A stretch of DNA of 64,000 nucleotides from an uncultured archaeon (GTDB lineage Archaea; Thermoproteota; Bathyarchaeia; Bathyarchaeales; Bathycorpusculaceae), in the NCBI GenBank assembly GCA_963782915.1, contig CAWALK010000024.1:1-64000 (forward strand). Direction: 5' to 3'. Within the stretch, counting starts at the first letter, position 1. Each line of letters opens with the position of its first letter. Below, one piece after another: positions 1 to 20,169 of the stretch. The notes beneath the pieces are model-generated. The model was given only the letters and a program-made list of their open reading frames with translations. It made no database searches and was not told the DNA's origin. A program made the translations under genes and the position numbers.

Positions 1-792
1 TACCAGCGAAACCGCTGGGTCGCCGCGCAGGAAGGTCGTCCTCACAAGCCGCCGCAGCCGGGGACCGAGATCACGACCAGGGACAAGCGCGTGATCGTGG
101 TTGGTGGCGGCGACACCGGCATGGACTGCATCTCGAACTCCCACCGCGAGGGCGCTCGCAGCGTCGTGATGCTCGACGTCTACGCGGAGCTCTCGGCCAA
201 TGGCGCCGATCCTCGGCACCCTTGGCCGCTCCCGCCCAAGCGCACGCCCACGACCTATGCGCTCGAGGAGGGCGGCAGACGTCGCTGGGGGACCGAGGTC
301 ACCGGTTTCGGCGGCAAGGATGGCGCGGTCAGTCACGTGTATGCGCGGCAGGTGACCGGAACCTCATCTCGCGATCTGACGCCCGTTCCGGGCAGCGAAT
401 TCGTGCTCGAAGCGGATGTCGTCCTGATCGCGATCGGATTCCAGCGTCCCGAGCACGATGGGCTCGTCGAGCAGGTGGGGCTGGATCTCGACCACCGCGG
501 CAACATTCGAACGCAACAGACGTACCGGACGTCGGCGAAGGGCGTGTACGCCTGCGGCGACGCGCGGCTCGGCCAGTCGCTGGTCGTCACCGCGATCGCC
601 GAGGGACGCAAATGTGCCCGGATCGTCAATCAGGACCTCGGCGGCAGCGCGATGGACGCCGACCGAGAGAAGCTCGCGATCGGAGCGTGGAGCGGCGAGC
701 CCGATCGGACGCTGCGCCACGAGGCGGAAGCGGCCGGTACCGTCAGGCCCGGGGAGGAATTCTTCAGCGGCCCGGGCACCCGCGCACGCTGA
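1..792 (+). CDS. gltD: glutamate synthase small subunit, 5'-truncated by window edge
   Basis: Frame open from base 1; VIVVGGGDTGMDC, DVVLIAIGF and GVYACGD..GQSLVVTAIAEGR motifs typical of GltD. Confidence 0.88.
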   Translation, partial: YQRNRWVAAQEGRPHKPPQPGTEITTRDKRVIVVGGGDTGMDCISNSHREGARSVVMLDVYAELSANGADPRHPWPLPPKRTPTTYALEEGGRRRWGTEVTGFGGKDGAVSHVYARQVTGTSSRDLTPVPGSEFVLEADVVLIAIGFQRPEHDGLVEQVGLDLDHRGNIRTQQTYRTSAKGVYACGDARLGQSLVVTAIAEGRKCARIVNQDLGGSAMDADREKLAIGAWSGEPDRTLRHEAEAAGTVRPGEEFFSGPGTRAR

Positions 793-925
793 GAAATCCG
801 ATCGTCAGCTCGGAGATCTGACGGGAGAATTCCCTCACCACGTCTCCGGGCTGCTACGTTAACAATGAGTCCGGGCACGTCTCTGCGCGGTCGAGTGGGC
901 GTTAGGAGAACTATTTAGGTTTACT

Positions 926-1024
926 GAGAGCTTGGGGCGGGGAAACTCGCCCTGTCGGTCAGGGAACTGCGCCCCCACTTCCCTGACTCTCCGGGGGGGC
1001 CCAGATGGATCTGGGTCCCCCGGG
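926..1024 (+). ncRNA. candidate structured small RNA (three hairpins, the last terminator-like)
   Basis: GGGCGGG-GAAA-CTCGCCC (935-952, GNRA loop); GTCAGGGAA/TTCCCTGAC (958-987, C-rich loop); long GC hairpin 991-1024. Confidence 0.4.
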
Positions 1025-1033
1025 TCTACCTAA

Positions 1034-1193
1034 GGGCCCGTCGATAAATGAGTTGCGGTCTGAGGCGCCCGATGAGCGTCGCGGATGCTTCGTCCTCGGG
1101 GCTTGACGCAGCGCTGCTGCGCCTGCGCCCCTGCGTCCTCGCCCCGCTCGCTCCTCGGACCCCTCATTCCCACACCTTATTTATCGACGAACC
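1034..1193. mobile_element. MITE-like non-autonomous element
   Basis: Imperfect terminal inverted repeats GGCCCGTCGATAAATGAG (1035-1052) and CTTATTTATCGACGAACC (1176-1193), 15/18 match; TAA on both sides (1031-33, 1194-96). Confidence 0.55.
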
Positions 1194-1275
1194 TAATCTA
1201 AGGGCCGGCAGGATGCCGGCGCGTGGAGTCTGCAGCGGCGATCACGCGGTCTCCCGGACTCGAGCAGTGGTGATC

Positions 1276-1315
1276 GCCGCCGCCCAGAGCCGGATGCCGC
1301 CGCCCAGAGCCGGAT
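1276..1315. repeat. 20-bp tandem duplication
   Basis: GCCGCCGCCCAGAGCCGGAT x2. Confidence 0.85.
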
Positions 1316-1351
1316 GCGGTTGCAGCGTTCAGGGGTCGGTCGGCGTGCCGG

Positions 1352-2386
1352 GTGTGCGACCGTTTGCTCATGGCAGTCCTCGCCGTCGCGACTCCAAACG
1401 CGCAGCACAGCCACCATCACGCCACAGTCGGCAGCACGATCAGCCACCTGCTGGACTCGATCGGCAAGTTCTTCTCGCAGCTGGCCAACCTTGCGTGGGT
1501 CCCGCTGCTGGTCGGGCTCGCGTTCTATTCGCTCTATCTGCTGCTCCGCTCGCGAGCCCTATTCAACGCCGTCCGCGCGGCGTATCCGGACGAAGAGGTG
1601 CGCTGGCGCGACGTCTGGGGCGCCTACATGGTGGGCTACGCGGTCAACAACGTGTTCCCGCTGGGCGGCGGAAACATCGCTCAGCTGTTCCTGACCCGGG
1701 TCGCGATCCTGCGCAGCAGCTACCCGACGGTGGCCGCGGCGCTTTCGACAGGAGTCGTGTTCGACTGGTTCATGGGCGTGCTGGTGATGGCGTTCGCCTT
1801 CACCCAGGGAGTGTTTCCCAAGCCTCCCGACTTCTCGAAGCTGCCCGCGTTCGACATCAGCTTCTTTGCCTCGCACATGCGGTTCACGCTCTTCGTTCTG
1901 ACGGTGCTCGGCGTGGGCTTCATGATCGCATTCGCGCTCCTGTCGGCTCGTGTGCGCGCGTTCTGGGCACGGGTGCGCCAGGGGTTCACGATCCTGCGCG
2001 ACCGTCGCCGCTACGGCCGGGAGATGGCCAGCTGGCAGTTCGCGAGCTGGATCGCCCGGTTCGGCGCGTATTGGGCGCTCCTCGACGCGTTTCACATCGG
2101 CGGCTCGGTGCGCAACGCGTTGCTGGTACTGGGTGTCCAGGTGGTCGCCTCCGTGTTCCCATTCACCCCCGGAGGGGCCGGGGTCCAGCAGGCACTGCTG
2201 CTGACGATCTTCGCCAACAACCCCGATGTCGCTGCGTTCTCGGTCGGCCAGCAGGTCGTCACCGCCGTGCTCAGCTCAGCGCTCGGCTTCGCGGCGCTCG
2301 TGCTGATCTTCCGCTTCAAGAGCTTCCGCGAGGTGATCGAGCGGGGGCGCGAGCACCGTCGCGGCGAGGCGATGGTGGCCGGCTGA
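1352..2386 (+). CDS. lysylphosphatidylglycerol synthase TM / flippase-like (UPF0104) membrane protein
   Basis: Multi-TM protein with GYAVNNVFP.GGG and PFTPGGAGV motifs; true start may be ATG 1370. Confidence 0.75.
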   Translation: MCDRLLMAVLAVATPNAQHSHHHATVGSTISHLLDSIGKFFSQLANLAWVPLLVGLAFYSLYLLLRSRALFNAVRAAYPDEEVRWRDVWGAYMVGYAVNNVFPLGGGNIAQLFLTRVAILRSSYPTVAAALSTGVVFDWFMGVLVMAFAFTQGVFPKPPDFSKLPAFDISFFASHMRFTLFVLTVLGVGFMIAFALLSARVRAFWARVRQGFTILRDRRRYGREMASWQFASWIARFGAYWALLDAFHIGGSVRNALLVLGVQVVASVFPFTPGGAGVQQALLLTIFANNPDVAAFSVGQQVVTAVLSSALGFAALVLIFRFKSFREVIERGREHRRGEAMVAG

Positions 2387-2408
2387 GGCCATCGGGGTTC
2401 GCGCGCGC

Positions 2409-2709
2409 CGGTACTTCGACGACTACGTCGATCACTTCGGTTTCCGCGAGAAGATCACGTTCGAGACGGGCGTCGAGCACGCCGAGCGAGGGGAGGACGG
2501 CGTCTGGGATCTGACGTTCGACTCCGGCGAACGCGAAGATGTTCAAGCGCTACGTCGCCTCCAAGCGCCACACGATGCAGGTCGATTTTGACAACTACCT
2601 GTACGACCTGCGCAAGGAGCTGAAGGCCGGAGCAGCCCGAGCCCGGGCCGCGGGGTTCGGCCTAACGGTGGCGCCACGTGCGGGTGTCGCCGACCCCGCC
2701 GCCGTCTGA
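2409..2709 (+). pseudogene. flavin-containing monooxygenase remnant with a large internal deletion
   Basis: My translation: YFDDYVDHFGFREKITFETGVEHAERGEDGVWDLT, joined out of frame to the C-terminal KRYVASKRHTMQVDFDNYLYDLRKELKAG...stop; no start or FAD motif. Confidence 0.65.
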
Positions 2710-2714
2710 CCCAG

Positions 2715-3365
2715 GTGGCGGTTGCAGGAGGACAGCGCGCGATCAGGCAGCCGATGCCGACAGGCGGAAAGCGAGCCATGACGAAGGCGCAGAACCGCGC
2801 CGCGATCCACGACGCCGCGCGCGAGGTGTTCGCCGAGCTCGGGTACGACGCCGCCGGCGTGCGCGATGTGATCCGCCGGACCGATCTGGCCTCGGGCACC
2901 TTCTACAACTATTTCCCCGACAAGGAGTCGGTGTTCCGCGCAGTGCTCGACCTCAGCGCCCAGGACGTGCGACGCCGGCTGCGCGCTGTCCGAGGCAACG
3001 CCCGCACATGGGAATCGTTTGTCGGCGACGCATATCGCGCCTGGTTCGAATTCCTCGTCGAGGACGAGCTGATGTTCGAGCTGATGCAGCGAAACGCCGG
3101 ACCGATCCGGGCGCTGTTCGGCGACCCGATCCTCGGCGCCGGGATCGACGAGCTGCTCGACGATCTTCAAGCCGCGATCGCGCGCGGCGACCTGCCGCCG
3201 CTGGACGCCGACTACATGGCCGGCGCGATGGCCGGCGTCGCGCTCGAGCTGGGCGTGCGCATGGCTGAGCGCGAGCCCGCCGACGTCGACGGCGCGGCGC
3301 GTTTCGCGACGGAGCTCTTTCCGGGCGGGATCGCCCGGCTCGGCGAGACGTCTCAGGCGCTCTGA
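2715..3365 (+). CDS. TetR/AcrR family regulator
   Basis: N-terminal HTH AAREVFAELGYDAAGVRDVIRRTDLASGTFYNYFPDKE. Confidence 0.92.
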   Translation: MAVAGGQRAIRQPMPTGGKRAMTKAQNRAAIHDAAREVFAELGYDAAGVRDVIRRTDLASGTFYNYFPDKESVFRAVLDLSAQDVRRRLRAVRGNARTWESFVGDAYRAWFEFLVEDELMFELMQRNAGPIRALFGDPILGAGIDELLDDLQAAIARGDLPPLDADYMAGAMAGVALELGVRMAEREPADVDGAARFATELFPGGIARLGETSQAL

Positions 3366-3709
3366 GCGGGGCTCCTCGCGGTGCCTGCCCTGAGCTGGGA
3401 GGCGCGCATCCGCAGCAGCTCGATCAGCTCAGCCCCGCGATGAAACGGATCTGCGATCGGCGCTCCGCCGTCGAGCGGCAGCGCCGCGCGCAGCCGCCCG
3501 TCGACCTCCGCGACGAGCGCCGGACCCAGCGGAGCGCCGGCCGCGTCGAGCTCCGCCAGCAGCTCCAGGCGATCCGCGTCCGCCGCCGACGCATACCGAA
3601 GCGTGACCCGCGTGACCGGCGTGTCGCCGCTGTCAACTCGAGCGCGTTTCGCGGTCTCCTGGAGATCTCGATTGTGCTCACGGGCGGCGAGGAAGCTGAG
3701 ACTCAGCAT
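3353..3709 (-). CDS. hypothetical protein
   Basis: Plausible high-GC ORF (LVAEVDGRLRAAL..ADPF), divergent from the CGNR gene. Confidence 0.65.
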   Translation of the reverse strand: MLSLSFLAAREHNRDLQETAKRARVDSGDTPVTRVTLRYASAADADRLELLAELDAAGAPLGPALVAEVDGRLRAALPLDGGAPIADPFHRGAELIELLRMRASQLRAGTARSPAQSA

Positions 3710-3785
3710 GGCGGTTCCTTTCGGCGCTGGTAACCATCAAAACTATATAGACAGTTGCGTAACCGGTCAAGTAAGATTGTCGGTG

Positions 3786-4349
3786 ATGAGCAAGAAGGAA
3801 CAGGCGCCCGGGGAGCTCGAGCTGGTCCGCGCGTTCGTGAACACTGTCGATATCGAGGAGGGCGAAGAGGAGCTCCACAGCGCCGGCGCTCTGGCGGCCT
3901 GGCTCGCCGAGCACGGCCTCGCCACGAGCGACGTGCGTGCGACTCCCGGCGATCTCCGGCACGCGACCGAGCTGCGCGAGGCGCTCCGCGCGGTCCTGCT
4001 CGCGCACAACGGCGGGCCGCCGGCGCCCGCCGCTGCGTGCGCGACTCTCGATGCCGGCGCGCGCCGCGCGCGCGTGCGGCTTCGATTTGACAAAGGCGCC
4101 ACGGGGGCCCTCGAGCCCGAGGCCGCCGGAGTGGACGGTGCGCTCGGACGGCTGTTGGCGATCGTTCACGCTGCCATCGCCCAGGGAACCTGGGAGCGGC
4201 TGAAGGCCTGCCGCGAGCACACGTGCGAGTGGGCGTTCTACGACCACACCAAGAACCGCTCCGGCTCCTGGTGCAACATGCAGGTCTGCGGCAACCGAGC
4301 CAAGGCCCGCGCCTACCGCGAGCGTCAAGCCGCGCCCGGCAGTGCGTGA
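3786..4349 (+). CDS. ABATE/CGNR zinc-finger protein
   Basis: FVNT motif and C-terminal C-x4-C..FYDHTKNRSGSWCNMQVCGNRAKARAYR. Confidence 0.92.
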   Translation: MSKKEQAPGELELVRAFVNTVDIEEGEEELHSAGALAAWLAEHGLATSDVRATPGDLRHATELREALRAVLLAHNGGPPAPAAACATLDAGARRARVRLRFDKGATGALEPEAAGVDGALGRLLAIVHAAIAQGTWERLKACREHTCEWAFYDHTKNRSGSWCNMQVCGNRAKARAYRERQAAPGSA

Positions 4350-4414
4350 CCAACCGCCCTCGTGACGCCGGCCTCTCGGCTTGCGCGAGGGCATGCGAGG
4401 ATTTGTCGCCTGAG

Positions 4415-5416
4415 ATGCCCACCTTCTGCCGCCACAACCGGCTGATCCAGAACTGCCCGATCTGCTCGCGCGAGCAGGCGGTCGACCTTCGCCCGATCGT
4501 CTCGTCGAGCGCTCCCCGCTCGAGCCTGCCACGAACCGGCACGCCACGCACGAGCCATCCCTCGGGCTCCGCGTCTCGTTCGGCCGGCGGCGCGAGGAGC
4601 GCGAGCGGGCTGCGCGTGCGGCGACTTGCCCGGGGCGCGGACGACGGCTATCAATCCCGGCTCGTTCCGGGGCTGAGATCGAGCGCCGAGGCCGAGAACC
4701 TGGCGCAGGAGCTGGCATTTGCAGCCGGCCGTCTCGCGCGGCTTCAGCAGGACCCGCCGGGCCTCTACGGGGACGTGGCGGCCGGCGAAGGCGATCTCGA
4801 GGAGCGCACGTGGCTCGCGTTCCTGATCGCCTACATCTGTCCGCTCGAAGGCGAGGACCCGTTCAGCGGCGTCAGCGGCGCCATGACCACGTGGGCCTCC
4901 GGCGACGCGCCGGCGCTCGAAGAGATCGCGCTGGGTCCCCGCAGCGCTCATGACCCCGCCCGCGGAACGCGCACGATCGACGCGTACCGAGCCTGGGCGC
5001 TGCGCGCCGGCTCGCAGGCGGCCGCGTTCACCGCCGAAAGCGCGTGGAGCGCGGAGCGGCGGTTCGCGCGGGTGTTCGAGCGGCTGGCTCTGCCCGGCCT
5101 TCACCGCGACGCGCGGTTCGACCTGCTCGTCACGCTCGGGCGCCTGGGAGTGTACGACCTGCGCCCGGACGCCCTGCAGTTAGGGGGGGAGAACGAGGTC
5201 ACGGTGGCCGCCAAGCGCGCCCTGGGGATCGGCGACTCGCTGCTGCTCGAGCGTCGAGCGGCCGAGCTCGCCGACGCGTGCGCCCTGCCGCTCGAGGCGC
5301 TCGACGTCGGCTTCCACAACTGGGGACGAGGCGCACGTGCGACCTTGGGCCTCGGGGCCGGGGCCGAGCCGGATGCCGCCGCGCTGGAGTCGGCCCGCAG
5401 GGCGCTGGCCTTGTAG
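4415..5416 (+). CDS. hypothetical protein, possible aGPT-Pplase3-like domain, with N-terminal C-x-H..CxxC motif
   Basis: MPTFCRHNRLIQNCPICS start; ERTWLAFL and F.RVFERL..PGLHRDARFDLLVTLGRLG resemble the aGPT-Pplase3 signature (from recall). Confidence 0.55.
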   Translation: MPTFCRHNRLIQNCPICSREQAVDLRPIVSSSAPRSSLPRTGTPRTSHPSGSASRSAGGARSASGLRVRRLARGADDGYQSRLVPGLRSSAEAENLAQELAFAAGRLARLQQDPPGLYGDVAAGEGDLEERTWLAFLIAYICPLEGEDPFSGVSGAMTTWASGDAPALEEIALGPRSAHDPARGTRTIDAYRAWALRAGSQAAAFTAESAWSAERRFARVFERLALPGLHRDARFDLLVTLGRLGVYDLRPDALQLGGENEVTVAAKRALGIGDSLLLERRAAELADACALPLEALDVGFHNWGRGARATLGLGAGAEPDAAALESARRALAL

Positions 5417-5844
5417 GCCGGCCGGTGCGAAACTTCGGTTTCTCCCGCGGGTTCCGGCCCCCGGAGCTGTTTCTGCCGGAGCCGGGAGGTGGCGATGCGC
5501 CGTTGGTTCGTCCCGAACCTTTCAGTCGCATCGGTGCCGGCGATCGGCGCGGGAGCCGTGGCGCTGCCGAGCGCCGCAGCCGCGACACCCGTTTCCCGCT
5601 TGTTCGTGTGCCCGCTCGCATCGAGCGGTCGGCAAACCGCTCCGTCCGGGCGATCTCCTACCTTCTGCGGCGTCCGAATCCACGAGCCGGAGCCGCAATG
5701 TCACTCTGCTTCATCGAACCGCAGAACGCCATCCGGGTCATCGCCGACTCGGTCGGGCGTGAGGCGCGTCGCCAGATACTCGGAGAAGTCGTGCGCGCGT
5801 GGGTCGACGAGATCCCAGAGTCCGAGCTCGAGTCCCACTACATG

Positions 5845-6600
5845 AATGTACTTTGCAATGGGCATATTCTTGAAACACTTCCCTTAAACAAGGCTTATGA
5901 AGAAACCCATGAGGGAGCAATTCTCCTACATCAAGGCGAAACTTACCGCTCACTAGAGCTGGATGTCAACAATTTGACGGCAACGGTTCGCCAAGAGAGT
6001 ACCAACTATTATACTGAAACCCAAAAAACCGTCGAAGTAGCAATCAAGAAAACGTTGGAGGAAACCCAAAAAGACCTTAAAACTGCTTTGGGCGAATTAA
6101 CAATCACTGAAAATTATCCTTCATATGTAGTAAAATCCAGCGATGTAGTCATCAAAAAACATATGCTTGATTTGCCCTCTTCATCTTTCTCAACGGTGGG
6201 GTTATGGTTTACTGTTCCTGAACAGATCAGAGAAGAAATAGAAGATAAAAGCTTGAATTTTGATGGTGGCTTGCATGCTCTTGAACATGCCATTATTGCG
6301 ATGGCACCAATGTTTGCAATGTGTGACCGATGGGATATAGGCGGAATGTCAACAGCCCTACATGTGGACACAGGGAAACCAACGATCTTTATTTATGATG
6401 GTTTTGAGGGTGGAATTGGTATTTCGGAAAACCTCTATTCAAACATAAAACCGTTACTGGAAAAAACGCTCGAGTTGATTGAAACCTGTGAATGCAAGGA
6501 AGGTTGCCCATCATGCATTTACTCGCCTAAATGTGGAAACGGTAACGAACCATTGGATAAAAAGGCAGCATACATAATCTTGCAACGTCTGATTAAATGA
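5845..6600 (+). CDS. DEAD/DEAH helicase C-terminus with DUF1998 (Hrq1/MrfA/YprA family), 5'-truncated at the junction
   Basis: GLHALEHA, IFIYDGFEGGIG and CECKEGCPSCIYSPKC motifs. Confidence 0.9.
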   Translation, partial: NVLCNGHILETLPLNKAYEETHEGAILLHQGETYRSLELDVNNLTATVRQESTNYYTETQKTVEVAIKKTLEETQKDLKTALGELTITENYPSYVVKSSDVVIKKHMLDLPSSSFSTVGLWFTVPEQIREEIEDKSLNFDGGLHALEHAIIAMAPMFAMCDRWDIGGMSTALHVDTGKPTIFIYDGFEGGIGISENLYSNIKPLLEKTLELIETCECKEGCPSCIYSPKCGNGNEPLDKKAAYIILQRLIK

Positions 6601-6680: not shown

Positions 6681-7127
6681 TTAACCAAGTTTTCCCGCTT
6701 GGCTTTCGGAGCAGTGGGGATTATGGCATTGAAGGCACCATCGGGGATAACTTGGGCAGATTTCTTTTTTCTTAAAACCCCAATTCTTTCTTAACACCTC
6801 AGCGTCTGCCTCTATGTTTTTGGTTCTGCTTTTAGTTTTTGCGTGCCCGAGGTAGGCGTGGGCTATTTCGTGTGCTATTAAAGACTCTGAATCGGTTCGC
6901 TTCAAAATTATCATGCAAGGCTTGCTTAATTCTTTGACTTCCAAGGTCTGACTTTGACCTGCATGGAAAGAAACATTCTCCAAAGTAAACCGATAAACCT
7001 CTTCAGGGAGCCTAGCTAAAGTATTTACAAGTCGTGTATAGAGGGGATTCCATCTTTGAGCACGACGAATAAACTCATCAATATCACTTCTACACTCAAC
7101 CTCATGCGGGTCTCTTTTTTTCACCAA
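6681..7127 (-). CDS. small HEXXH zinc metallopeptidase-like protein (IrrE/ImmA-like), Cys-rich tail
   Basis: IAHEIAHAYLGH followed by IEADA; C-terminal C..C..C..C. Confidence 0.65.
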   Translation of the reverse strand: MVKKRDPHEVECRSDIDEFIRRAQRWNPLYTRLVNTLARLPEEVYRFTLENVSFHAGQSQTLEVKELSKPCMIILKRTDSESLIAHEIAHAYLGHAKTKSRTKNIEADAEVLRKNWGFKKKEICPSYPRWCLQCHNPHCSESQAGKLG

Positions 7128-8375: not shown

Positions 8376-8594
8376 CTATACTTCGTTGTAGGAGTTGCAC
8401 TTTGGACACTTTAGTACAACGTTCTTAAATTTGCCTTCAACTATGGTTTCGCCGATTTTTGCTCCGCAGTTGCCGCACAGATATGTAGTTTCGCCGTTTT
8501 TGCTTTTTATTACTGGCAAAGTTTTAGATGCGTAGACAGTTTGGGTTTTGCTTGGTTCGGGTATAACTTTTAGTTTTCTATTCATTTTATCCAC
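8376..8594 (-). CDS. small Zn-ribbon protein
   Basis: CGNC..CPKC..N pair. Confidence 0.65.
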   Translation of the reverse strand: MDKMNRKLKVIPEPSKTQTVYASKTLPVIKSKNGETTYLCGNCGAKIGETIVEGKFKNVVLKCPKCNSYNEV

Positions 8595-8806: not shown

Positions 8807-9925
8807 ATGAATAAAAAACTCTTCTCAGGTATCGTTATAGCACTATTCTTTCTCTCCGTTATAATCGTTCCACAAATAGCCTATTGCCAAACAGCAACTC
8901 CGTCTGATGGAACGACAACAGAGCCAACACCCACAGAAACAGCAGGGCAAGGGAGCCCCCTGGACTTGTTACTCATCGGTGGAATCATAGCGGCAGTGGC
9001 AGTTGTTGGAGTCGTAGCTGCGTTTGTCTTAGTTAAAAAACGGAAAGTGAGTGAAAAAAGCCTAAGAAAATATTCATCCCCTAACTTCCAAGATTGGGTT
9101 ATCAAAAGATTCAATGGCAAACCAAGCGACCCATCTACAGGAATAAGTGGGTTCACCCAGGGAGGGCAACCCCTTTTGATTAAACAATCAGATGTCACCT
9201 TAGCTGAGGTGTCAGACTTTGTTAATGTATTAGCTAAGGGAAGGGCGCAGAAGGGTACGATTGTTGCTTTCAATTTTGACAAAGATACCATTGAGGGAAG
9301 AGTAGACGCTTTGGATAAGGGAATTGAGCTTCAAATGTTGCGCATAACCGAACTATTGAACAAACGCTATGCTGATAGAATAAATAAAACGGCAGGTGCA
9401 CAGGTTACCTTTGAAGCGTCTTCACAGTCGTACATAACGGAAGCTCCAGTAGCAATGGCGCAGACAGAAACATTTGAAAGAACTCCAAATCTGCATCCGA
9501 GAGAAGGCGTGAAACCTCTGATCTTCATATCCAACAGCAACACGAAGGTAACTGAACAAGTGAAGAAAATGTTAGAGTTCCTTCATTACGACTATGTTAT
9601 GGGTGACAAAGAAGAAACAGCCGTGCCAATTTCAGACAGCAAATTTGGGTTAATGAAAGGCTGCGATTGCGCAATAATAAACATCGCTGCAGCTGAACAA
9701 GAACGAAGATACAGCGGAATCTACATCCTTAACCCAAATGTCCTCTCAGAAATCGATGCAGCATACCTAAAATATAACACTCAGGTTGTTTTGCTGGTTG
9801 AGAAAAAAGTGGATTTGCCCGCAAATCTTAAGGGTCTAAAAAGAATCGACTACGACAGTGATGATCTGTCTTTTAATGCTGCGATGGATTTGGAGAAGGC
9901 GTTGGCGGACTTTAAGAAATTTTGA
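8807..9925 (+). CDS. membrane-anchored protein with Mrr-like nuclease fold and C-terminal TIR-like (CAP12-type) domain
   Basis: Signal peptide, T/P linker, TM + KKRK, FQDWVI..KQS..KGTIVAFNF, then IFISN..CDCAII..NVLSEI..LLVEK.V.LP.NL.GL. Confidence 0.7.
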   Translation: MNKKLFSGIVIALFFLSVIIVPQIAYCQTATPSDGTTTEPTPTETAGQGSPLDLLLIGGIIAAVAVVGVVAAFVLVKKRKVSEKSLRKYSSPNFQDWVIKRFNGKPSDPSTGISGFTQGGQPLLIKQSDVTLAEVSDFVNVLAKGRAQKGTIVAFNFDKDTIEGRVDALDKGIELQMLRITELLNKRYADRINKTAGAQVTFEASSQSYITEAPVAMAQTETFERTPNLHPREGVKPLIFISNSNTKVTEQVKKMLEFLHYDYVMGDKEETAVPISDSKFGLMKGCDCAIINIAAAEQERRYSGIYILNPNVLSEIDAAYLKYNTQVVLLVEKKVDLPANLKGLKRIDYDSDDLSFNAAMDLEKALADFKKF

Positions 9926-9961
9926 TATCGAGTTATCTAAAGCAAGTTTTTGGCTTTTTGA

Positions 9962-9986
9962 GGGGGTTCGAATCCCACCCTCCACA
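9962..9986 (+). other. tRNA 3'-end fragment (T-arm + acceptor strand, Leu-like), att-like remnant
   Basis: GGGGG-TTCGAAT-CCCAC-CCTCCAC-A; no 5' half adjacent. Confidence 0.6.
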
Positions 9987-10052
9987 ACTTAACTTCCAAG
10001 CAATAAAAAAGTAACAACATACTTTTATAGCAACTTTTCATACATCCCATCT

Positions 10053-12001
10053 ATGCCACACTTACGCCGAGTTGCCATAATTACTACCGTTCTGGTTCTT
10101 GCTGTGGCAGTCTTGCTATCCTCGTTCTACATCTCACAACTTACCCAGCCCCCAGCCCCCGTCAGCGCCTCTGATTTGGCAGCCCTCACCTACTACACTG
10201 AACAGTACCCTCCATACAACTATCAAGAAAACGGTACACTCAAAGGCGTCTCCGTTGATTTGCTGGGGGCAATCACAGAGAAAATGGGCTACAAAGCAAC
10301 ACCAGAGCAAGTGCATTTGGCTCCTTGGACAGAAGGCTACCAAGCAACATTAACCCAGAATAGCACTGTGCTTTTTTCTACTGTACGATTGCCTGAACGA
10401 GAAGCGTCTTTCAAATGGGTTGGTCCAATCGCCACCTACAAGTATGTGCTTTTTACTGGATGGGATAAAGCGATTAGTATCAATAGCACCGCGGATTTGG
10501 GGAATTATCGAATCGGAGTAATCGCCGATGACGCCGCTATTCCACAACTTATAGCAGTCGGTGTGGACAGAAGCCAATTAGTGGAGGAAACAAACGCAAC
10601 AGCTCTTATCGGAAAACTTGCGCATGGCGACATAGACCTATGGTGTTATCCCGAAGAAGTCGGCAGATTCCTCACCGAAGAGATAACAGGCAATTACTAC
10701 TCGTTCAACGTCGTTTACAGACTAGAAAACATTGACTTATACTATGCATTCAGCAAAGATATTACCCGATTCAACAGTGAACGCTTTCCAGCGGGCGCTT
10801 GATACCCTCAAAACAGAAAAAGACGCCACAGGATTTAGCACATATGACATGATTTTGGGGCAGTATATCCCAGCCATCGGGTTTGCCCATCTAAACTACT
10901 TGACTGAGGAATGGGCACCCTTCAACTATGCGAAAGACGGAACAGCAGGAGGCATCTCTGTTGAAATCTTGGAATCGATTTTTCGCCACTCAGGGGTAGA
11001 CCGTTCTGCCTCAGATGTCAAGATTGTTCCCCTTTCAGAGGGCTTCCAGCAGGCACAAAAAAACAGCAGCACCGTTCTCTTCTCCATCGTCCGCACGGCA
11101 GCACGTGAACCATACTACAAATGGGTTGGACCATTTACTAAAGCCAGCTTCGTTGTCTATTCAGCAGCCAATAGTAACATAACCATTGCCTCAGAGGCGG
11201 ATTTGAATAAGTACCGCATAGGCACTGTGAACGGCACCATAGAATATGATATGTTGATTGGCAAGAACGTAAAGGCATCCAATATTGTTGTGGGGTCAAT
11301 CCGACGGAGCTTCTGCAGATGCTAAGAGACGGCGGAATCGATTTGTGGGCTACTGGAGATTTTACGGGCATTATGAGATTAATATGGCAGGATTGGACAC
11401 AAAGGATTACAGCATTGTTTACAGCTTGGGTGAAAAAGAGTTCTACTTCATCTTCAGCAAAGATGTCCCCGATTTAGTAGTGGACGCGTTTGGGCATGCA
11501 CTTGAGACAGTTCGGAACCAGAAGGATGCACAGGGATTCAGCGAGTACGAGCGGATTATCTACCGCAACTTGGGAGTTAGCTATGCCCAGCCAAAATTCA
11601 CCAATGAAGCGGTGATGGCTCTTGTGGATAAAACCGCAGCTGCCATTGAGAAAAATGCAACAGACGCTTTCCTCCACATCAACGCTGGCGACTCACCTTA
11701 CAAAGACCCACAGAAACCAGGGCTCTACAGTTTTGTTTACGATACAAACGTGACTATGGTTGCCCATGCAGACAATATCTTGCTTGTAGGAGTCAATTTC
11801 AAGGGAAAAACCGATGTTACAGGTCAACCTTTCCGCGACTACATCATTGCAGGAGCATTAGAAAACCAGACGGGATGGGTTGATTATGTCTATAGTAATT
11901 CTGCCCAAACAAACCTGTACTATAAGACCACGTATTATCGGCTGGTTGTTGGTAGCGATGGGAACCGATATGTTGTGTGTAGTGGCAACTTCAAGAGTTA
12001 A
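10053..12001 (+). CDS. membrane-anchored double family-3 solute-binding domain + Cache domain protein (2 frameshifts)
   Basis: TEQYPPYNY / TEEWAPFNY, R..FKWVGP repeats; C-terminal YSFVYD..MVAH..GWVDY..K Cache-like; ORFs 10053-10802, 10732-11325 and 11285-12001 are collinear. Confidence 0.8.
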
Positions 12002-12085
12002 CGGTCCTCAATTCGTATTATGCCAACATTCTATTTCGGGTTTGTAACACAAATCCTAAAAGCAAGTCAGACAAATTTTTAAGCC

Positions 12086-12977
12086 ATGCAGAAAAGAAGC
12101 GTCGCTTTAGTAGCCCTATTCGGCGGCATAGCCATATTCCTAGTAAAACTATTAGCTTATTTTGTTTCTAACTCGGTGGCTTTACTCTCCGATGCACTTG
12201 AATCAATCGTTAACATTTTAGCTTCAGGGCTTATGCTATTTTCTGTTTGGCTATCCGCAAAACCCGCAGACGACAGCCATAATTATGGGCATCAAAAAGT
12301 CGAAGACATCTCCAGCATGCTAGAAGGCATCTTGATAATAATTGCAGCATTACTAATCGTGAACGCTGGAATAGGCAGACTGTTCTCTGAGGTTTTACCT
12401 ATCGAGATAAACCTAGCAATCGGCATCTCAATGATTGCCACAGCCATGAATGGAGGCATATCTTGGTACCTTGGTCGAGCGGCAAAAAAAAGTGGGTCAG
12501 CTGCCCTCGAAGGCGACGCTAAGCACCTACTATCAGATGTAATCTCTACAATAGGGGTCTGGATAGGTCTTTTCATTGTAGGCTTGACAGGTTGGGGCAT
12601 CATTGACCCTATTATGGCATTCATAGTTGCAGCTTTAATCGCCCGTATGGGCTTAGGTTTAGTTATAAAGTCCTCTTCAAGGCTGATGGATAACTCCTGC
12701 AAAGCTGAAGAAGCAAAAATACGTGAAATACTACTGCGACACAAATACCAATTCTTTGACTTTCCACGAATTAAAAACTCGAAGAAATGGCAATTTAGTT
12801 TTCTGTGAACTACATCTTTCGGTTGATGGTTCATTGAGTGTAGCTGAAGCGCACGAGTTAACTGATCACCTAGAGAACGAACTCAAAGAAGAATTACCTA
12901 ATGCAAACATGACTATCCATGTTGAGCCAAAACCAAATAATTCCCAAAAGCAACCCAACGTCCGAAAGGAAACATAA
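12086..12977 (+). CDS. cation diffusion facilitator (FieF-like) transporter (1 frameshift)
   Basis: SVALLSDALES, KPAD..H.YGH.K, DAKHLLSD, C-terminal IHVEP. Confidence 0.9.
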
Positions 12978-12992
12978 ACGTAATTTCGGTTG

Positions 12993-13430
12993 TTACGGGA
13001 CGACTACAACTGGAAATTTTGCCTTATGAATAATTCTTTCGCTTGTAGTACCCGTGAATGATTCACGCAGATTACTCTGTCCGCTGTGACCAATAACTGT
13101 AATATCAAAGTTTTTTGCGGTATCAATTATTTCGTTCACGGGATTTCCAGCCCTTACTATAGATGAAATCGTCAAGTTAGGCTTATTACCTTTAATATTA
13201 TCGACTATGTTAGCTATTTTCTTCTCACTTATTTTCTGCATATTAGTCAAATAGTTTTCTCCATAAACAACCGCTACTTCAGCGCCAGACATCCCGAATG
13301 GAATTTTGTTTTGATAGATGTTTATGATAGTAATAGATGCGCCCAATTTTTCTGCTAAATCTACAGCAAAATCTATCGCTCTATTTGCGTTTTCGGAAAA
13401 GTCAGTTGCGACTAATATTTTGTTGGTCAA
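12993..13430 (-). CDS. universal stress protein
   Basis: KILVATDFSE..G..G..GTTSERII..PVVVV. Confidence 0.9.
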   Translation of the reverse strand: MTNKILVATDFSENANRAIDFAVDLAEKLGASITIINIYQNKIPFGMSGAEVAVVYGENYLTNMQKISEKKIANIVDNIKGNKPNLTISSIVRAGNPVNEIIDTAKNFDITVIGHSGQSNLRESFTGTTSERIIHKAKFPVVVVP

Positions 13431-13589
13431 AAAATCATCTGGATGAATAGGAAGTTATGAATTTAATAAATTTTTTCTAATGTGCAATGTTGTGATAGAT
13501 ATTTATTTCTTAAAAAAAGAAAACACTCGGATAAGCAGTTTAACAAAGGATTCCAAAAAAAGGGGAAAAGGGATTTTTGTTTGCGCTGC

Positions 13590-16245
13590 TTATCGTCTTC
13601 GAATCATCAACGCCAGCACTGCGCCAACGATGATGATGACAATGATGATGGCTATGATTCCGGGTAGGAGATACTGGTCAACTGTCGATGTACCAGTTCC
13701 GGATGTTGCGGTAGGTGATGCGGCTGCTTGAGTTACGCCGATGGCTGTTTGTGCAAATGAGCTATAGTATGCGTGAGAGCCCTCGAATGTAGCATATACT
13801 GTGTATTTGCCAGTGATGTCTGGTGTCCATTCGAAGCTGAAGAATCCGTTTGCGTCAGCTGTTGTTGTACCGACTGTTCTGTAATTGCCGTTAGCGTCGA
13901 TGACGGAGATTGTTACAGGTACTCCGGTTGCATTAGTTGGGCGCTCAAATTGTTTGTAGACGTAGAGCATCCATTGGCTTTGGCTTTCATCAGATACTGC
14001 TGGGACACCGTTGGGGAAGCGTAGTTTTATTGATGTGTCTGCTGTGCCAGGAGAAGTATCAGTAACGTAACCAGTAATCATTACGCCACCATTCAACGCT
14101 GAAACTCCCGGTGTCGCTGTTATACTGGTTTGCGTTGCACCTTTGCCTATCGCATAGACCTGTAGATCATAAGTATCCAGAGTGGCGATGATGCTGTCAC
14201 CGATAATACCGTTACCACCCCAACGGGTTTCACGGAACATACCGTTGACACGGAAGATTTCTGCGCCAGTCGTTGCGTTAACACAAGCATATGGTCCGCC
14301 TCTTGGAATTGGGTTGTTAGCTGAGTGTTCTAAGTGTGCCGATGTAGATTTTGCCTGCTGCGATTAGGTCTATCCAGCCCCACCAGTTCTCGCCTGTGAC
14401 GGGTTCATTGTATGCGTCGGTTAAGTTGTAGGTCCATGAAACATTTCCGTTTGAAAGGTCATAGGCATACAAGATACCGGCTAAACCAACTGAGTAGAGT
14501 TTGCCATAAGCAAAGTACCAAGTGTGTTCAGCATTACCCCAACCGTACAAATCTAAGTAGTTCTCGGAAGCGGTAGCCCATAGATAAGACCCATCGACAA
14601 CGCTGAAGCCATAGTGGGTTGTTAGCTCTTTGTCGAATACTGCCATGACACCGTTACCGTATGTCGTATCATTAACGTAGTTAGTTGCGCCTGTGTAGTG
14701 GATTGTATTTGAGCCTGCGAGCCATTCAGCTGGTGCTGCCCAAACTTTGTCGTAGATTGGTGTTAATGATTGTGTGTTATTGCTTGCGGTGCGGGTTGTA
14801 GTTATGGAGTTAAGTGGTAGTGCCCATATGCGTACCATTGATTGGTTGTAATCCATGCCGACGATTCGGTTATTTGCATAGACTTTGATGGATGGTGAAC
14901 CTAATTCGGTTTTAACGGCTAAGTTTTTGGGTATGGTTACGTTCCATGAGTAGCATTTAGCTAGTGATCCGTTCAGAGCTCTTACTGTTGGGAAAGCTGA
15001 GTTTACTTGTTGACCAATCGGATTTGTTGGATTAGCAATGCTAACACCACTGCCGTTTAAGCCAAGTACACCGAAAGACCAACTGCCATAGGATGGTTGA
15101 CCAATGACGTCATTTTGTTGTCCTGCAAGTGTTGAGTTCCAAAGTGCCATCCAGCCGTTAACGTAGTCGATTTGGTAGATCAGAAATTCACCGCTTGGAC
15201 CATAGACTCTGACGCCGGAGGGGACATTGTAGTACATGTACTGGAATGAGCCATCAACAGGGCTGTATGCTGTGTAGTTGCTGCCAGTTACTGACCAGAG
15301 ATAATTGAATACACCGTTTACGTTGTAGCTGGCAAAGAACAAACTTTGGCCGAATGCCAACTGGGTGTTGTTAAGGTAGAAGAGTTTTTCACCGGTGTGT
15401 AGATCAATTGCTTGGATTCCGGGTATTCCTACCGTGGAGTATGTGCCCGCGGGTTGTGCGTTGTAGTATAGTACGCCGTTGAGGATTACTGCGCTTGAGA
15501 ATTTGCCTTCATATGCATCTCCTGCATACATTGCCGCTGGAACGCTGTCAGCATATAAGCCACCTGCCAATCCACCTGACGTATAGGGTTGAGCCCATAT
15601 AACGTGTGCAGTGTCTGGTGCATTGTCTTGGTATAGTGCTAAGGAGTTGTCTGGTCTTGCTACCCAGTTACCTGAGATGCTGTACCATTCTCTGAGCTGT
15701 GGGTCGATTGGACGACTCCAATATTCAGTTGGAAGAGAATGACTGGGGTATTGCGATTTTGTTGGTTCTTGGGTTACAACCAATGCGCTTGATTTGTTGC
15801 TTGGTAGCAGTATTGTGCCGGCTGTGATAGTTATGCCTCTTTCTGAGTCAAGGAACGTAATTGGGAAGGTTTGCTGTGGAACGTTTGTTGTTAAATTGTA
15901 GGTTCCTACTTGATCTGGCGTAAATGAAGTGTATGTCGAACCGGTTGAGTCAGTTGTGAATGGACCGAGGGTTTCAGTTGTACCATCTGGTTTTACGACA
16001 GTAATGGTGATACCTGACCAGCCATACGATGCTGAAGGCGCTGCCTGTGTAATACCAACTTTGAGCAGTGTTGACTCCCCAAGACCGATTGGATTGGGGA
16101 TAGAATCAGAAATTGCATAAGTCTGCATAGTTACTACTGCCTGTGCAGGTTGTATAGGTATAGATATAGCGATTGAAGAGGATACGAAAACTAATAGCAG
16201 AAGTATCGTAATTGCATATTTAGATTTTTGTTTTAAAAGTTGCAT
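13590..16245 (-). CDS. secreted PQQ-like beta-propeller surface protein, paralog 1 (1 frameshift near 14330)
   Basis: Signal peptide, LPTEYWSRPI, A.DL.TGE repeats, RFPNGVPAVSDESQSQWMLYVYKQ, C-terminal TM + RRR. Confidence 0.85.
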
Positions 16246-16275
16246 TTTTTGTTTTTTCCTTTCCTTTGTTTTTTA

Positions 16276-16383
16276 TTTGGGCAAGAAAGCGAAGAAAATG
16301 CTAGTCTGATTGAATAGCAAAACTAGAATTCTTTTGGGCTTGCTTGCCCAATAGATATAATTATCAACTTTCCCATTTATAAC
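16276..16383 (-). promoter_or_regulatory. TATA box plus 5'-UTR stem-loop of PQQ-like paralog 1
   Basis: TTATAAAT on minus strand (~16375-82); TTGGGCAAG/CTTGCCCAA stem (16277-16351); A-rich leader. Confidence 0.5.
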
Positions 16384-16664
16384 AGTTACTAAAATAGCAC
16401 ATTACTTTGCTTATCAAATAAAATAGCGGTAAAATATTAGAAAAGCGATAAAATCAGGCGTTCCTGTCAAGATTGATAAGGAGAAAAAAATGTTTTTACA
16501 ATTAGCTACCTTATTCTTTCATTTTTTGGATAAAAGTTTCCGTTTCAAAACCAGCGTGTTCTGAGTTGAGTTTCGGAAGAGTTTTGCTGGTTTCAAACAT
16601 ACGCCCGTTTAAGAGAACGGTTTTGGGAAAACAACTAAATAGTTGAAGAGTTCAATTTAGAGCC

Positions 16665-17351
16665 ATGACCTACATAAAGAAAAGCCACACTAAACTCTAT
16701 CTTGCAATCTTACTCATAGCAATAATCATTGTAGCTACCGGCGCAGTCGTCTATAGCACACTCTCAACTAAACAAGTTAAAGTAGGCGTAAATGTAGGCG
16801 ATACTTTCACCTATAGCATCAAAGGCATAGTAACCTTAACGGGACTTGACGCAACAATGTCTCCCGGCTTCGAAATCTTCAATCAGACTGACTACTACAA
16901 AGTTAGCATAACTGGGGTTAACAATACCCAAGTTTCTATGGATGTCGCTTGGAAATTCCTAAATGGAACAGAAATCACAACACCTCAAACTATCGATATT
17001 GCTACCGGAAATAAAACTACAGAATCCGGTTTCTGGGCTATTTATCCAGCTGACTTAAACATCGCCGATTTACTCCGACCTAAGGGTTTCGACGGAACAA
17101 TTGTTAACAATACATACACGGCCAAGTACTCCAGTGGAGACAGAAGTACATGCTTCTGGAAGATCGACAACGAATTCTACAATTACCAAGACCCTACACG
17201 GAGCACGCTTATGTACGATTACCGCAACATAGACTTTGACAGAGCCACAGGCATGTTGACTGCAATGAGCTGGTACCAATTCTTCAATAACCCAGAGAAG
17301 ACAGAGCAAATCGTCTACAAACTAGTAGATACATCGGTTTGGCAAATATAA
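16665..17351 (+). CDS. membrane-anchored hypothetical protein
   Basis: N-terminal TM, GV.VGD.F.Y motif, D..TG.L, many N-x-S/T sites. Confidence 0.75.
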   Translation: MTYIKKSHTKLYLAILLIAIIIVATGAVVYSTLSTKQVKVGVNVGDTFTYSIKGIVTLTGLDATMSPGFEIFNQTDYYKVSITGVNNTQVSMDVAWKFLNGTEITTPQTIDIATGNKTTESGFWAIYPADLNIADLLRPKGFDGTIVNNTYTAKYSSGDRSTCFWKIDNEFYNYQDPTRSTLMYDYRNIDFDRATGMLTAMSWYQFFNNPEKTEQIVYKLVDTSVWQI

Positions 17352-18238: not shown

Positions 18239-20169
18239 CTATTTTTTGTTTTGTTTGGATTTTATGAGGGCTAATTTTCCGCCTGCAAGTACCTGCTGTT
18301 TTTCTATGCTGCTTAGGTTTAAGTTAACGTTGATTTTTGTACCCTTAGTCTTGTTTACGATGACTAAATTTTCCTTCAAGTCATCAACCTCAAGGTCTAA
18401 AGCATCCCCCATTTCTATGGCATCATAGTCTTTCTTGTCAGCAAAAGTCAAGGGTAATATACCGAAGTTAACGAGGTTAGCCATGTGTATTCTTGCAAAG
18501 GATTTAGCAACGATAGCTTTCACGCCCAAGATATTTGGGTGCGAGCGCTGCATGTTCTCTGCTGCTGCCTTGTCCATAGTTTTCGCCGCCAATTATGAAT
18601 CCGCCGCCCTTCTCTAAGGCTCTGCCTGCAAAGGTTTTGTCAACATGGCAGAAGGTGTAGGTGCTGATTTCTGGGATGTTACTGCGTAAGGACATGATTT
18701 CGCTGCCGCCGGGTATGATGTCGTCGGTGGTGATGTTGTCGCCTGTTTTTAGGAGGACGTCGCCTGAGAGTTTCTCGGGTAGGGGCGAGAATGTTGGTAG
18801 AGGTTTAATGTTTGGCCCCATAACGATTTTCTCTGATGCGCAGAAGCTTGGTTGAATAAACATCGCATCGCTTAACAGGAATTTGTCTGGCATCTGGATT
18901 TGGGGGAATTTGCCGAGTTTGCGTGGATCAGTAATTTTGCCGTTTAATGCTGCAGCAACTGCGGTTTCGGGGCTGACCAGATACACTTTTGCGTCTTGTG
19001 TTCCGCTTCGGCCTTTGAAGTTACGGTTGAAAGTTCTTAGTGATACGGCTTCTGTTGTTGGGGCTTGCCCGATGCCGATGCAGGGTCCACAAGAGTTCTC
19101 CAGGATTCTTGCGCCTGACTGGATGAATGGTTCCAGTTCGCCTGCAGCAGCCAAATTCGCCATGGCTTGACGTGAACCCGCTGATATGGTTAGGCTGGTG
19201 TTTTCATGGACTTTTTTGCCTTTGAGTAGTGCGGAGACGATTTTTAGGTCTCGCAGTGATGAGTTGGTGCAGCTGCCGATGCAGACTTGGTCGACTGGGG
19301 TGCCTTCGAGTTCCCATACGGTTTTGATGTTGTCTGGGCTGTGTGGCAACGCGATTAGGGGTTCGAGTTTTGAGAGGTCGATTTCGATTGTTTCGTCGTA
19401 TGTTGCGTCTTCGTCTGCTTTGAGTTCAACCCATTGCTCCACGCGTCCCTGAGCTGCAAAGAAAGCTTTGGTGATTTCGTCTGAGGGGAAAATGGAGGTG
19501 GTTGCGCCTGTTTCAGCGCCCATGTTGGTGATGGTTCCTCGTTCGGGTACGCTGAGGGTTTCTACGCCTGGGCCATAAGTATTCGAGGATTTTGTTTACT
19601 CCGCCTTTAACTGTTAAGATTTTGAGGACTTGGAGTATGACGTCTTTGGCGGATACGAAGGGTTGGAGTTTACCAGTTAGTTTTATGCCGACGATTTTGG
19701 GCATTTCAAGGTAGAATGGTTCTCCCGCCATGGCTGCTGCAACGTCTAAGCCTCCTGCGCCGATGGCGATTACGCCTGCTCCTCCTGCGGTTGGGGTGTG
19801 GCTGTCGCTGCCCAGTAGTGTGTAGCCGGGTCTGGCGAAGCGTTCAAGGAAGAGTTGGTGGCAGATGCCGTTGCCGGGTCTGCTAAAGATGACGCCGTAT
19901 TTAGCTGCGACGCCTTGGAGGTAGCGGTGGTCGTCTGCGTTGCGGAAATCGTTTTGGAGCATGTTGTGGTCGACGAAGCTGACGCTTAGTTGGGTTTTGA
20001 CTTTGGGGATGCCCATGGCTTCGAATTCTAAGTAGGCCATGGTGCCTGTGGAGTCCTGTGTTAGGGTGTGGTCGATTTTTAGGGCGATTTCTTGGCCTGC
20101 AACCATTTTACCTTCAACTATGTGCTTTGCGATTACTTTTTGGGCTATCGTCTGCTTAACCATGCTCAT
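18239..20169 (-). CDS. aconitate hydratase (2 frameshifts)
   Basis: [55 protein letters not shown]. Confidence 0.92.

Follow-up and report, generated by a model that had tools for sequence, protein, structure and literature searches.

An archaeal gene encodes a membrane-anchored protein with a degenerate Mrr-like nuclease fold and a TIR-like domain

Introduction

The window analysed here, a stretch of 64,000 nucleotides from the start of contig CAWALK010000024.1, derives from an uncultured soil archaeon of the class Bathyarchaeia. At positions 8807–9925 of its plus strand lies a gene for a 372-residue protein that combines a hydrophobic leader, a membrane helix, a restriction-endonuclease (REase) fold whose active site has degenerated, and, at the C terminus, a TIR-like domain. 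The gene is optional within its genus. TIR domains are immune executioners common to bacteria, plants, and animals, and the systems that employ them differ in how the TIR domain is switched on. The host class comprises uncultured but ecologically abundant archaea in which antiviral biology is almost unknown. A first-pass annotation, made from the letters of the sequence, described the protein as a receptor-like TIR protein containing a dead nuclease. Here we describe the domains of the protein, its relatives, and its distribution, and consider what it may do.

Results

Gene and domain organization

The open reading frame (ORF) contains the motifs quoted in the first-pass annotation, with GISG at residues 112–115, LIK at residues 124–126, and NVLSEI at residues 311–316. 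A database search with the 372-residue protein retrieved 179 proteins at E ≤ 1e-3, and among the 120 of these that were listed, nearly all of them full-length, identity to the query is 58–91%. With 179 homologues, and with high full-length identity among those listed, the ORF is a real gene and not a chance reading frame. Counts of orthologues out of 120 given below refer to these 120 listed proteins, aligned over their full length. The few source names available for the homologues are mostly Bathyarchaeota or Bathyarchaeia, with three bacterial labels that belong to metagenome bins. Unlike several split genes in the same window, the TIR gene is itself uninterrupted. Its features, with the evidence for each, are as follows.

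8807..9925, plus strand: whole gene, 372 codons and a stop codon (protein P0001); ORF list, translation, and 179 homologues at E ≤ 1e-3
8807..8887, plus strand: residues 1–27, hydrophobic leader, MNKK and a hydrophobic core ending in AYC, followed by a conserved Gln; hydropathy and a model helix at residues 3–25
8888..8962, plus strand: residues 28–52, Thr/Pro-rich acidic outer stub; sequence, isoelectric point (pI) of 4.05, and predicted local distance difference test score (pLDDT) of ~47–58
8963..9046, plus strand: residues 53–80, membrane helix (53–76) and KKRK stop-transfer cluster (77–80); hydropathy and a model helix at residues 54–77
9047..9406, plus strand: residues 81–200, Mrr-like PD-(D/E)xK fold with a degenerate active site, and a C-terminal helix (186–197); model, structure search, and relatives
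9146..9148, plus strand: Ser114 codon, at the nuclease Asp position (GIDG reads GISG); alignment of 120 orthologues
9176..9184, plus strand: Leu124-Ile125-Lys126 codons, at the Mrr Q-x-K position; alignment of 120 orthologues
9407..9508, plus strand: residues 201–234, disordered acidic linker; pLDDT ~40
9509..9922, plus strand: residues 235–372, TIR-like domain (PF10137, CAP12/PycTIR type); Pfam, structure search, and relatives
9749..9751, plus strand: Glu315 codon (in NVLSEI), candidate catalytic Glu in helix C; alignments

Kyte-Doolittle windows identify two hydrophobic segments, at residues ~5–27 and 53–76, the second of which reaches a hydropathy of 2.83 and is followed by the KKRK cluster. 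The AlphaFold model of the full-length protein places helices at residues 3–25 and 54–77, in agreement with the membrane segment and basic cluster that had been annotated. The proposed signal peptide holds to the extent that hydropathy and the model both show a hydrophobic leader, which fits either a cleaved signal peptide or the first membrane helix of a two-helix hairpin. Cys27, at the end of the leader, is conserved, and Gln28 is found in at least 95% of the 120 orthologues. Because the N terminus carries two lysines and KKRK follows the second helix, both folded domains, which lie entirely after residue 77, are cytoplasmic in either topology. The 25 residues between the hydrophobic segments (QTATPSDGTTTEPTPTETAGQGSPL) form the short, low-complexity, Thr/Pro-rich and acidic external stub expected from the first-pass annotation. 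Among the orthologues this stub has a mean pairwise identity of 0.47 and a median length of 22 residues, and at the same position the relatives P0121 and P0122 carry 130–240 additional outer residues that are Ig-like. A family profile, built from an alignment of 133 rows (A2; 79 orthologues and 54 single-domain relatives), gave only non-significant matches to sequences in the PDB (E ≥ 0.66), and these were to membrane segments of single-pass receptors. The linker that joins the two cytoplasmic domains is the least conserved of these regions in its pairwise identity (mean of 0.37) and varies in length from 29 to 49 residues.

The middle domain is a degenerate restriction-endonuclease fold

The full-length AlphaFold model has a mean pLDDT of 83.8, which rises to ~97 over residues 81–200, and residues 80–201 modelled alone have a pLDDT of 95.7. 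When this domain was compared with known structures with VIA-align, 14 of the top 15 matches were PD-(D/E)xK nucleases or REase-fold proteins (Z 6.3–9.5), with an RNA polymerase subunit as the other. The seven best are AF1548 (Z 9.5), the FokI cleavage domain (Z 9.0), BspD6I (Z 8.9), NucS (Z 8.2), AspBHI and LlaBIII (both Z 8.1), and EcoT38I (Z 8.0). Foldseek returned weak matches to REase folds, the best at E 2.6e-3, and a look-up in the ESM Atlas placed the domain near Mrr_cat and NA-iREase1 clusters at 0.86–0.88, values that we treat as leads only. In a Pfam profile search the query has no match to Mrr_cat (PF04471) at E ≤ 10, and that family is detected in the relatives described below. 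With a confident model, PD-(D/E)xK nucleases as the top structural matches, and Mrr_cat in relatives, the degenerate Mrr-like fold first proposed from motifs is supported; comparison of the AlphaFold models with known structures recovered both a restriction-endonuclease fold and a TIR-like fold.

The catalytic Asp and the (Q/E)-x-K motif of Mrr are absent from the query, which has Ser114 at the first position and Leu124-Ile-Lys126 at the second. In the 120 orthologues the Asp column is occupied by Asn (69), Ser (23), Thr (20), and Asp (8), while position 126 is occupied by Lys (52), Val (26), Ile (17), Leu (9), Arg (9), and other residues (7). The flanking Gly112, Thr117, Pro122, Gln127, and Ser128 are nearly invariant. 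Because only 8 of 120 orthologues retain the Asp and 52 the Lys, and because the query itself has Ser114, we class the middle domain as an inactive derivative and not as a working Mrr nuclease. The domain is nonetheless conserved, with a mean pairwise identity among orthologues of 0.72, compared with 0.80 in the TIR domain, and it is basic, with a pI of 9.9 versus 5.2 for the TIR domain. As far as can be read from sequence, strong constraint together with a basic pI is the hallmark of a catalytic domain put to new use in binding.

An exhaustive search of representative proteins showed that residues ~29–188 recur, without a TIR domain, at the C terminus of membrane proteins whose outer part is a true domain, with DnaJ-type CXXCXGXG zinc fingers in some and an Ig-like domain in others. 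These free-standing relatives match the query at E values down to 5.9e-28. Mrr_cat is detected in 16 of 34 at E ≤ 1 (best E 1.8e-5), and NACHT-associated inactive REase 1 (PF22722) gives weak matches in 9 of 34 (best E 0.0077). The nuclease Asp is present in 33 of the 34 and the Lys in 25, with Gln at the first Q-x-K position in 7. The apparent inactivation of the nuclease is therefore tied to the TIR fusion, with Asp in 8 of 120 fused orthologues versus 33 of 34 free-standing relatives, and the dead nuclease proposed in the first-pass annotation thereby gains support from the family as a whole. The module shares with the query the membrane helix, a basic cluster (KKR), and the REase fold, at 31–54% identity, and differs from it in keeping the Asp and mostly the Lys, in having real outer domains, and in lacking a TIR domain. 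The N-terminal half of the query probably derives from this module.

The free-standing Mrr-like family is present in several genera of the class. A paralogue in the window's own genome (G000:C3:34161-35226, corresponding to L002 888–1953, with its Mrr-like match at 34684–35214) retains GIDG...SIKQ and has an extracellular DnaJ-type CXXCXGXG zinc-finger domain ahead of the Mrr-like module. It is divided between two overlapping ORFs (L002 888–1445 and 1336–1953), and the relatives P0149 and P0164 are single proteins.

The C-terminal domain is TIR-like and probably of the PF10137 type

PF10137 is the only Pfam family that the query matches, with an hmmscan score of 22.3 bits (E 1.4e-4, profile positions 2–118 of 119) that lies below the curated cut-off of 24.7 bits. 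In a six-frame search of the genome the same family scored 25.3 bits, above the cut-off. A search of NCBIfam gave nothing useful for the query. The AlphaFold model has a pLDDT of ~90 over residues 235–372, and its closest structural match in VIA-align is TIR-STING (7un8_A, Z 13.7, root-mean-square deviation of 3.0 over 124 aligned residues; 9lmq_A, Z 12.8), which Foldseek also retrieves, at E 1e-5. The RPS4 TIR domain follows at Z 11.8, and other TIR domains and flavodoxin-like folds score Z ~10–12. Because many other flavodoxin-like folds score Z ~10–11, the margin of the TIR assignment is modest. In the model the protein ends 22 residues beyond the last TIR strand. A predicted homodimer of residues 80–372 (score 0.06, mark 0.42) speaks neither for nor against self-association.

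The exhaustive representative search also showed that residues ~225–371 recur in cytosolic proteins of ~365 residues that have a different N terminus. All 58 of these cytosolic relatives match PF10137 (best E 1.6e-21), and in PADLOC 52 match PDC-S35, 33 a CBASS TIR effector model, and 13 PycTIR. In the A2 alignment a TIR effector model is matched by 35 of 133 rows and PDC-S35 by 26 of 133. In the ESM Atlas the N-terminal part of the cytosolic relatives led only to unnamed clusters. A profile of these relatives (A4) has no match among PDB sequences at E ≤ 1, with PycTIR alone appearing, at E 1.4.

In the alignment of 120 orthologues the Glu315 column contains Glu in 106, Ala in 12, Thr in 1, and a gap in 1, and every one of the 58 cytosolic relatives has the Glu. 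It lies opposite the Glu of NVHLEFG in PycTIR (8jsj) in a non-significant alignment (E 1.4), and by motif spacing it may be equivalent to a known catalytic Glu. The CAP12/TIR-like pattern with its Glu, as first annotated, accordingly finds agreement in the PF10137 type, the best structural match, and the prevalence of Glu315. The orthologues with a replaced Glu are P0053, P0063, P0089, P0100, P0101, P0103, P0105, P0108, P0112, P0115, P0118, P0119, and P0120. In these thirteen the rest of the TIR domain is conserved. Nine of those with Ala315 have Thr in the first nuclease column and Lys in the second, a pattern that suggests a single lineage in which the chemistry may have changed or been lost.

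A second PF10137 gene is present in the genome (G000:C12, match at 41294–41659; L023 1117–1950). It encodes 277 residues, matches the family at E 7.8e-22, and is more canonical. Its N-terminal half has no family assignment, and it adjoins a response-regulator receiver gene.

The gene is a patchily distributed accessory gene

Among 60 other species genomes of the same genus, 17 have an intact copy of the gene and 2 a broken one, the latter by an in-frame TGA (G020) or a split near residue 194 (G348). Of the 38 genomes with a completeness of 90% or more and a contamination of no more than 5%, the window's own genome included, 16 have a match at E ≤ 1e-40, with the two broken copies counted. Two closed genomes of the genus, G003 and G014, have no copy. 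A sample of 300 other genomes across the class yielded three full-length or near-full-length copies, one of which (G188) aligns from residue 75; all three are from the same genus, and none of the 300 genomes has a full-length copy outside it. None was found either in 16 genomes from other families of the order. The high identity of the homologues had raised the possibility of a housekeeping gene, which this patchy distribution rules out. With both folds found and the gene an accessory one, the outline of the first-pass annotation stands.

The gene occupies differing loci among genomes of the genus. A conserved block of genes for a 228-residue protein, an aconitase, and an orotidine monophosphate (OMP) decarboxylase borders the TIR gene in the window, G005, and G007, with 6, 0, and 2 ORFs, respectively, between gene and block. 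In these same genomes the flanking genes are 63–94% identical to those of the window and the TIR gene 62–66%. Three further genomes (G014, G001, and G013) retain the flanking block, with the TIR gene absent. Comparison of eight loci revealed no conserved neighbour or partner. A PADLOC scan of 81 neighbouring proteins from these loci detected no nucleotide cyclase and matched only two of them, a generic oxidoreductase and the truncated, DruE-like end of a helicase encoded in the window, neither of which is an effector of the Thoeris kind. The genome, which is 93.5% complete, contains no Piwi match, and its best SMODS match, at 18.4 bits, is below the cut-off. These scans agree with the first-pass annotation that no cyclase, ThsA, or Argonaute is encoded nearby.

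Two nearby genes were considered as partners and rejected. One is a divergently transcribed gene for a 72-residue zinc-ribbon protein (8376–8594, minus strand), which is adjacent to the TIR gene in only one other genome (G010). It occurs in 17 of the 60 genomes of the genus, many without the TIR gene, and in G012, G022, and G341, which have both genes, it is on other contigs or distant. The other is the gene for the 228-residue protein (16665–17351), adjacent to the orthologue in G005. Because it also occurs in genomes without the TIR gene, its link to that gene is positional only.

Other features of the window and of related loci are recorded here. Between the TIR gene and the conserved block, a variable slot (9926–16664) holds SBP/Cache, cation-efflux, and Usp genes and two surface-protein-like genes, and homologues of these last two occupy the same slot in G014, where there is no TIR gene. 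The SBP_bac_3/Cache gene (10053–12001, plus strand) is in three pieces and the cation-efflux gene (12086–12977, plus strand) in two. The aconitase (18239–20226, minus strand) is represented by three overlapping ORFs, and its counterparts in G005 and G007 are single genes encoding 639–643 residues. These split genes are either pseudogenes or the result of indel errors in the assembly. A 148-residue ORF (6681–7127, minus strand) contains an HEIAH motif like that of metalloproteases and, towards its C terminus, a cluster of Cys and His residues; Pfam gave nothing for it at E ≤ 0.01, and the eleven loci searched in related genomes contained no homologue. In G005 the orthologue lies downstream of a SLOG-cluster4/LOG-family gene (L018 7090–7668), with a 106-residue ORF between them, and the other loci showed nothing of this kind. 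Position 1 of the window is also the first position of the contig, and the G+C content of positions 1–5850 is 62–79% versus 36–49% afterwards. The switch occurs near 5800–5850, inside an ORF whose low-G+C part encodes the C-terminal end of a DruE-like helicase with an MrfA Zn-binding domain; the high-G+C part of the window contains a TetR-type regulator and an aGPT-Pplase3-like ORF. The high-G+C start of the contig is probably a chimeric assembly join and not biology.

Discussion

We tentatively propose that the protein is a single-protein sensor-effector of the abortive-infection type, in which the dead nuclease domain would bind invading nucleic acid at the membrane and thereby trigger the TIR domain. 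In this process, the anchor would hold the protein in the cell membrane with both domains on the cytoplasmic side, and its basic REase-like domain, without the residues needed for cutting, could act as a binding module. The ligand may be nucleic acid that arrives at the inner membrane surface, for example viral or plasmid DNA on its way into the cell. Several copies of the protein bound to one ligand would cluster their C-terminal TIR domains, and the clustered domains could then degrade NAD+ or a related nucleotide and so stop the infected cell. Activation of TIR domains in ligand-induced assemblies is established for TIR-STING, TIR-SAVED, and SPARTA. In favour of the proposal are the two folds, the TIR effector models that the relatives match, the loss of nuclease residues in the fused family from a domain that is still conserved and basic, the prevalence of Glu315, the patchy occurrence of the gene at differing loci, the lack of a conserved partner, and the precedent of an Mrr-type domain ahead of a TIR domain in a SPARTA subclade. 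A broader form of the proposal, which we regard as speculative and rather doubtful, is that the protein acts as an entry-gate immune protein, with a TIR executioner held at the inner membrane by a dead REase domain that recognises incoming viral DNA. It would have evolved from the still-active anchored Mrr-like nucleases with extracellular zinc fingers, and the two together would give Bathyarchaeia a layer of DNA surveillance at the membrane.

Several observations weigh against the sensor-effector proposal. There is no defence-island context in the eight loci examined: most of the 106 neighbouring proteins scanned in Pfam have metabolic functions, while two loci contain VapBC pairs and two contain integrase genes or fragments. 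For the query, PADLOC gave no match to any model, PDC-S35 included, and its PF10137 score falls on both sides of the cut-off (22.3 versus 25.3 bits). Binding of DNA by the dead domain is suggested by fold and charge only, and Glu315 is a candidate for the catalytic Glu only by motif spacing and the alignment at E 1.4. Furthermore, replacement of Glu315 by Ala or Thr in 13 of 120 otherwise conserved orthologues indicates that NAD+ cleavage cannot be universal in the family. In VIA-align the TIR-like fold is shared with the CMP N-glycosidase MilB (Z 11.3) and with 2′-deoxyribosyltransferases (Z 10.7). These fold matches, the dispensability of the Glu, the mostly metabolic neighbourhoods that lack known defence genes, and the high conservation of both domains (mean pairwise identity of 0.72–0.80) would also fit a protein of cell physiology, for example one that serves in membrane-tethered nucleotide or nucleoside hydrolysis, or in DNA tethering, uptake, or regulation, with the TIR-like domain as a nucleoside-hydrolase-type enzyme or a nucleotide-binding module. 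We consider such a role unlikely, because in the genus about two thirds of the genomes searched yielded no copy of the gene and two a broken one, because it is confined to one genus in our samples and changes locus, and because its nearest sequence families are defence-type TIR models and its best structural match is an immune TIR domain.

Within an immune function, the TIR domain might instead produce a signal, as in Thoeris, with an ADP-ribose-derived messenger activating an effector whose gene lies elsewhere in the genome. Glu315 is present in the query, and PF10137 is among the Pfam types that a systematic Thoeris survey screened as possible signal producers (bioRxiv 10.64898/2025.12.03.692087). 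The eight loci contain no conserved adjacent effector, whereas known Thoeris systems are operons, and the nearest characterised TIR domains of the PF10137 type, TIR-STING and PycTIR, are effectors, which makes signal production improbable. The topology also fits a type-I receptor that senses an external signal or a virion and passes the information through the membrane helix to the TIR domain, as in Toll-like receptors, and P0121 and P0122 have Ig-like outer domains of 130–240 residues before the same cytosolic module. However, the outer part of the query and of most orthologues is a low-complexity stub with a median of 22 residues, an identity of 0.47, and low model confidence, and the conserved parts of the protein are cytosolic; sensing from the outside, implied by the term receptor-like in the first-pass annotation, is not borne out and strikes us as quite improbable. 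Finally, the middle domain could still cut as a nuclease effector, with an active site that departs from the canonical one, and the TIR-like domain would then be its regulator or sensor. Some PD-(D/E)xK enzymes take catalytic residues from other positions, and Glu83, Asp108, Gln127, Ser128, and Asp129 are conserved in the fused family. Because the Asp and Lys positions, which are conserved in the free-standing relatives, drift freely in that family (Asn/Ser/Thr/Asp and Lys/Val/Ile/Leu/Arg), the pattern of a relaxed catalytic site, we hold this last explanation to be very improbable.

If the sensor-effector proposal is correct, the switch for this TIR domain is a membrane-tethered dead restriction-enzyme fold, which would be a new pairing of a sensor with a TIR domain. 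The contrast between active-looking free-standing modules and inactivated TIR-fused ones would provide a natural example of an effector domain recycled as a sensor. The analysis also brings to light a family of membrane-anchored Mrr-like nucleases for which the literature search below found no description. Should the protein not be immune, a conserved membrane-bound TIR-like enzyme would still be informative for the TIR/nucleoside-hydrolase superfamily.

Comparison with known systems

A literature search, to which subscription journals and preprint supplements were external, found no description of either the leader–membrane helix–REase–TIR architecture or the free-standing membrane-anchored Mrr-like family. 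The accessible portion of a systematic TIR survey, its supplements being outside the search, likewise has no mention of the architecture (bioRxiv 10.64898/2025.12.03.692087). The features that define the known TIR systems are also missing: a TIR operon with an effector, of the ThsA type or other, as in Thoeris, is not seen in the eight loci; the adjacent cyclase and cyclic-nucleotide sensor domain of CBASS and Pycsar are lacking; and there is neither the APAZ region after the TIR domain nor the short Argonaute of SPARTA. On these grounds the protein falls outside Thoeris, CBASS/Pycsar, and SPARTA.

The same order of domains is seen in the Mrr-TIR-APAZ proteins of a SPARTA subclade, in which an Mrr-type domain and then a TIR domain occur in one polypeptide (Koopal et al, 2022; PMC9097488). 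The likeness noted here is one of domain order. The Mrr-TIR-APAZ proteins continue into APAZ and pair with a short Argonaute, their TIR domain is annotated as IPR000157, and they have no membrane anchor, whereas the protein described here ends with the TIR domain, in a genome with no Piwi match, and has an anchor and a TIR domain of the PF10137 type.

The notion that a dead REase may serve as sensor or adaptor finds a parallel in NACHT-associated inactive REase 1 (PF22722). The fold of the middle domain is shared with Avs4 (8DGF, Z 6.3) and the Type ISP enzyme LlaBIII (4XQK, Z 8.1). In those proteins the domain is an active effector, and here there is no STAND NTPase or helicase. Animal Toll-like and IL-1 receptors resemble the protein in topology only, with a leader, a single membrane helix, and a cytoplasmic TIR-fold domain. 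They differ in that the archaeal protein has no ligand-binding ectodomain, an extra cytosolic REase fold, and another TIR subtype, and there is no evidence of common descent with the Toll-like receptor architecture.

Beyond the orthologues, the closest relatives of the TIR domain are the PDC-S35 proteins, cytosolic proteins of ~365 residues with up to 49% identity over residues ~221–371, which we take to be a computational candidate only. Their N-terminal part is soluble and of no recognised family, and the query matches no PDC-S35 model. The best structural match of the C-terminal domain is TIR-STING, a CBASS effector (SfSTING, PDB 7UN8 and 9LMQ). As in TIR-STING and the Pycsar effector PycTIR (PDB 8JSJ), a sensor domain, a putative one here, is fused to a TIR domain that would be expected to act on oligomerisation. 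The sensor of those proteins binds a cyclic nucleotide, whereas here the N-terminal partner is a dead REase fold, and the protein is membrane-anchored, archaeal, and encoded with no cyclase nearby, its sequence similarity to the solved chains being non-significant. TIR effectors of the PF10137 type are thus known, and what is new is the putative sensor and the membrane anchor to which this one is joined, in archaea.

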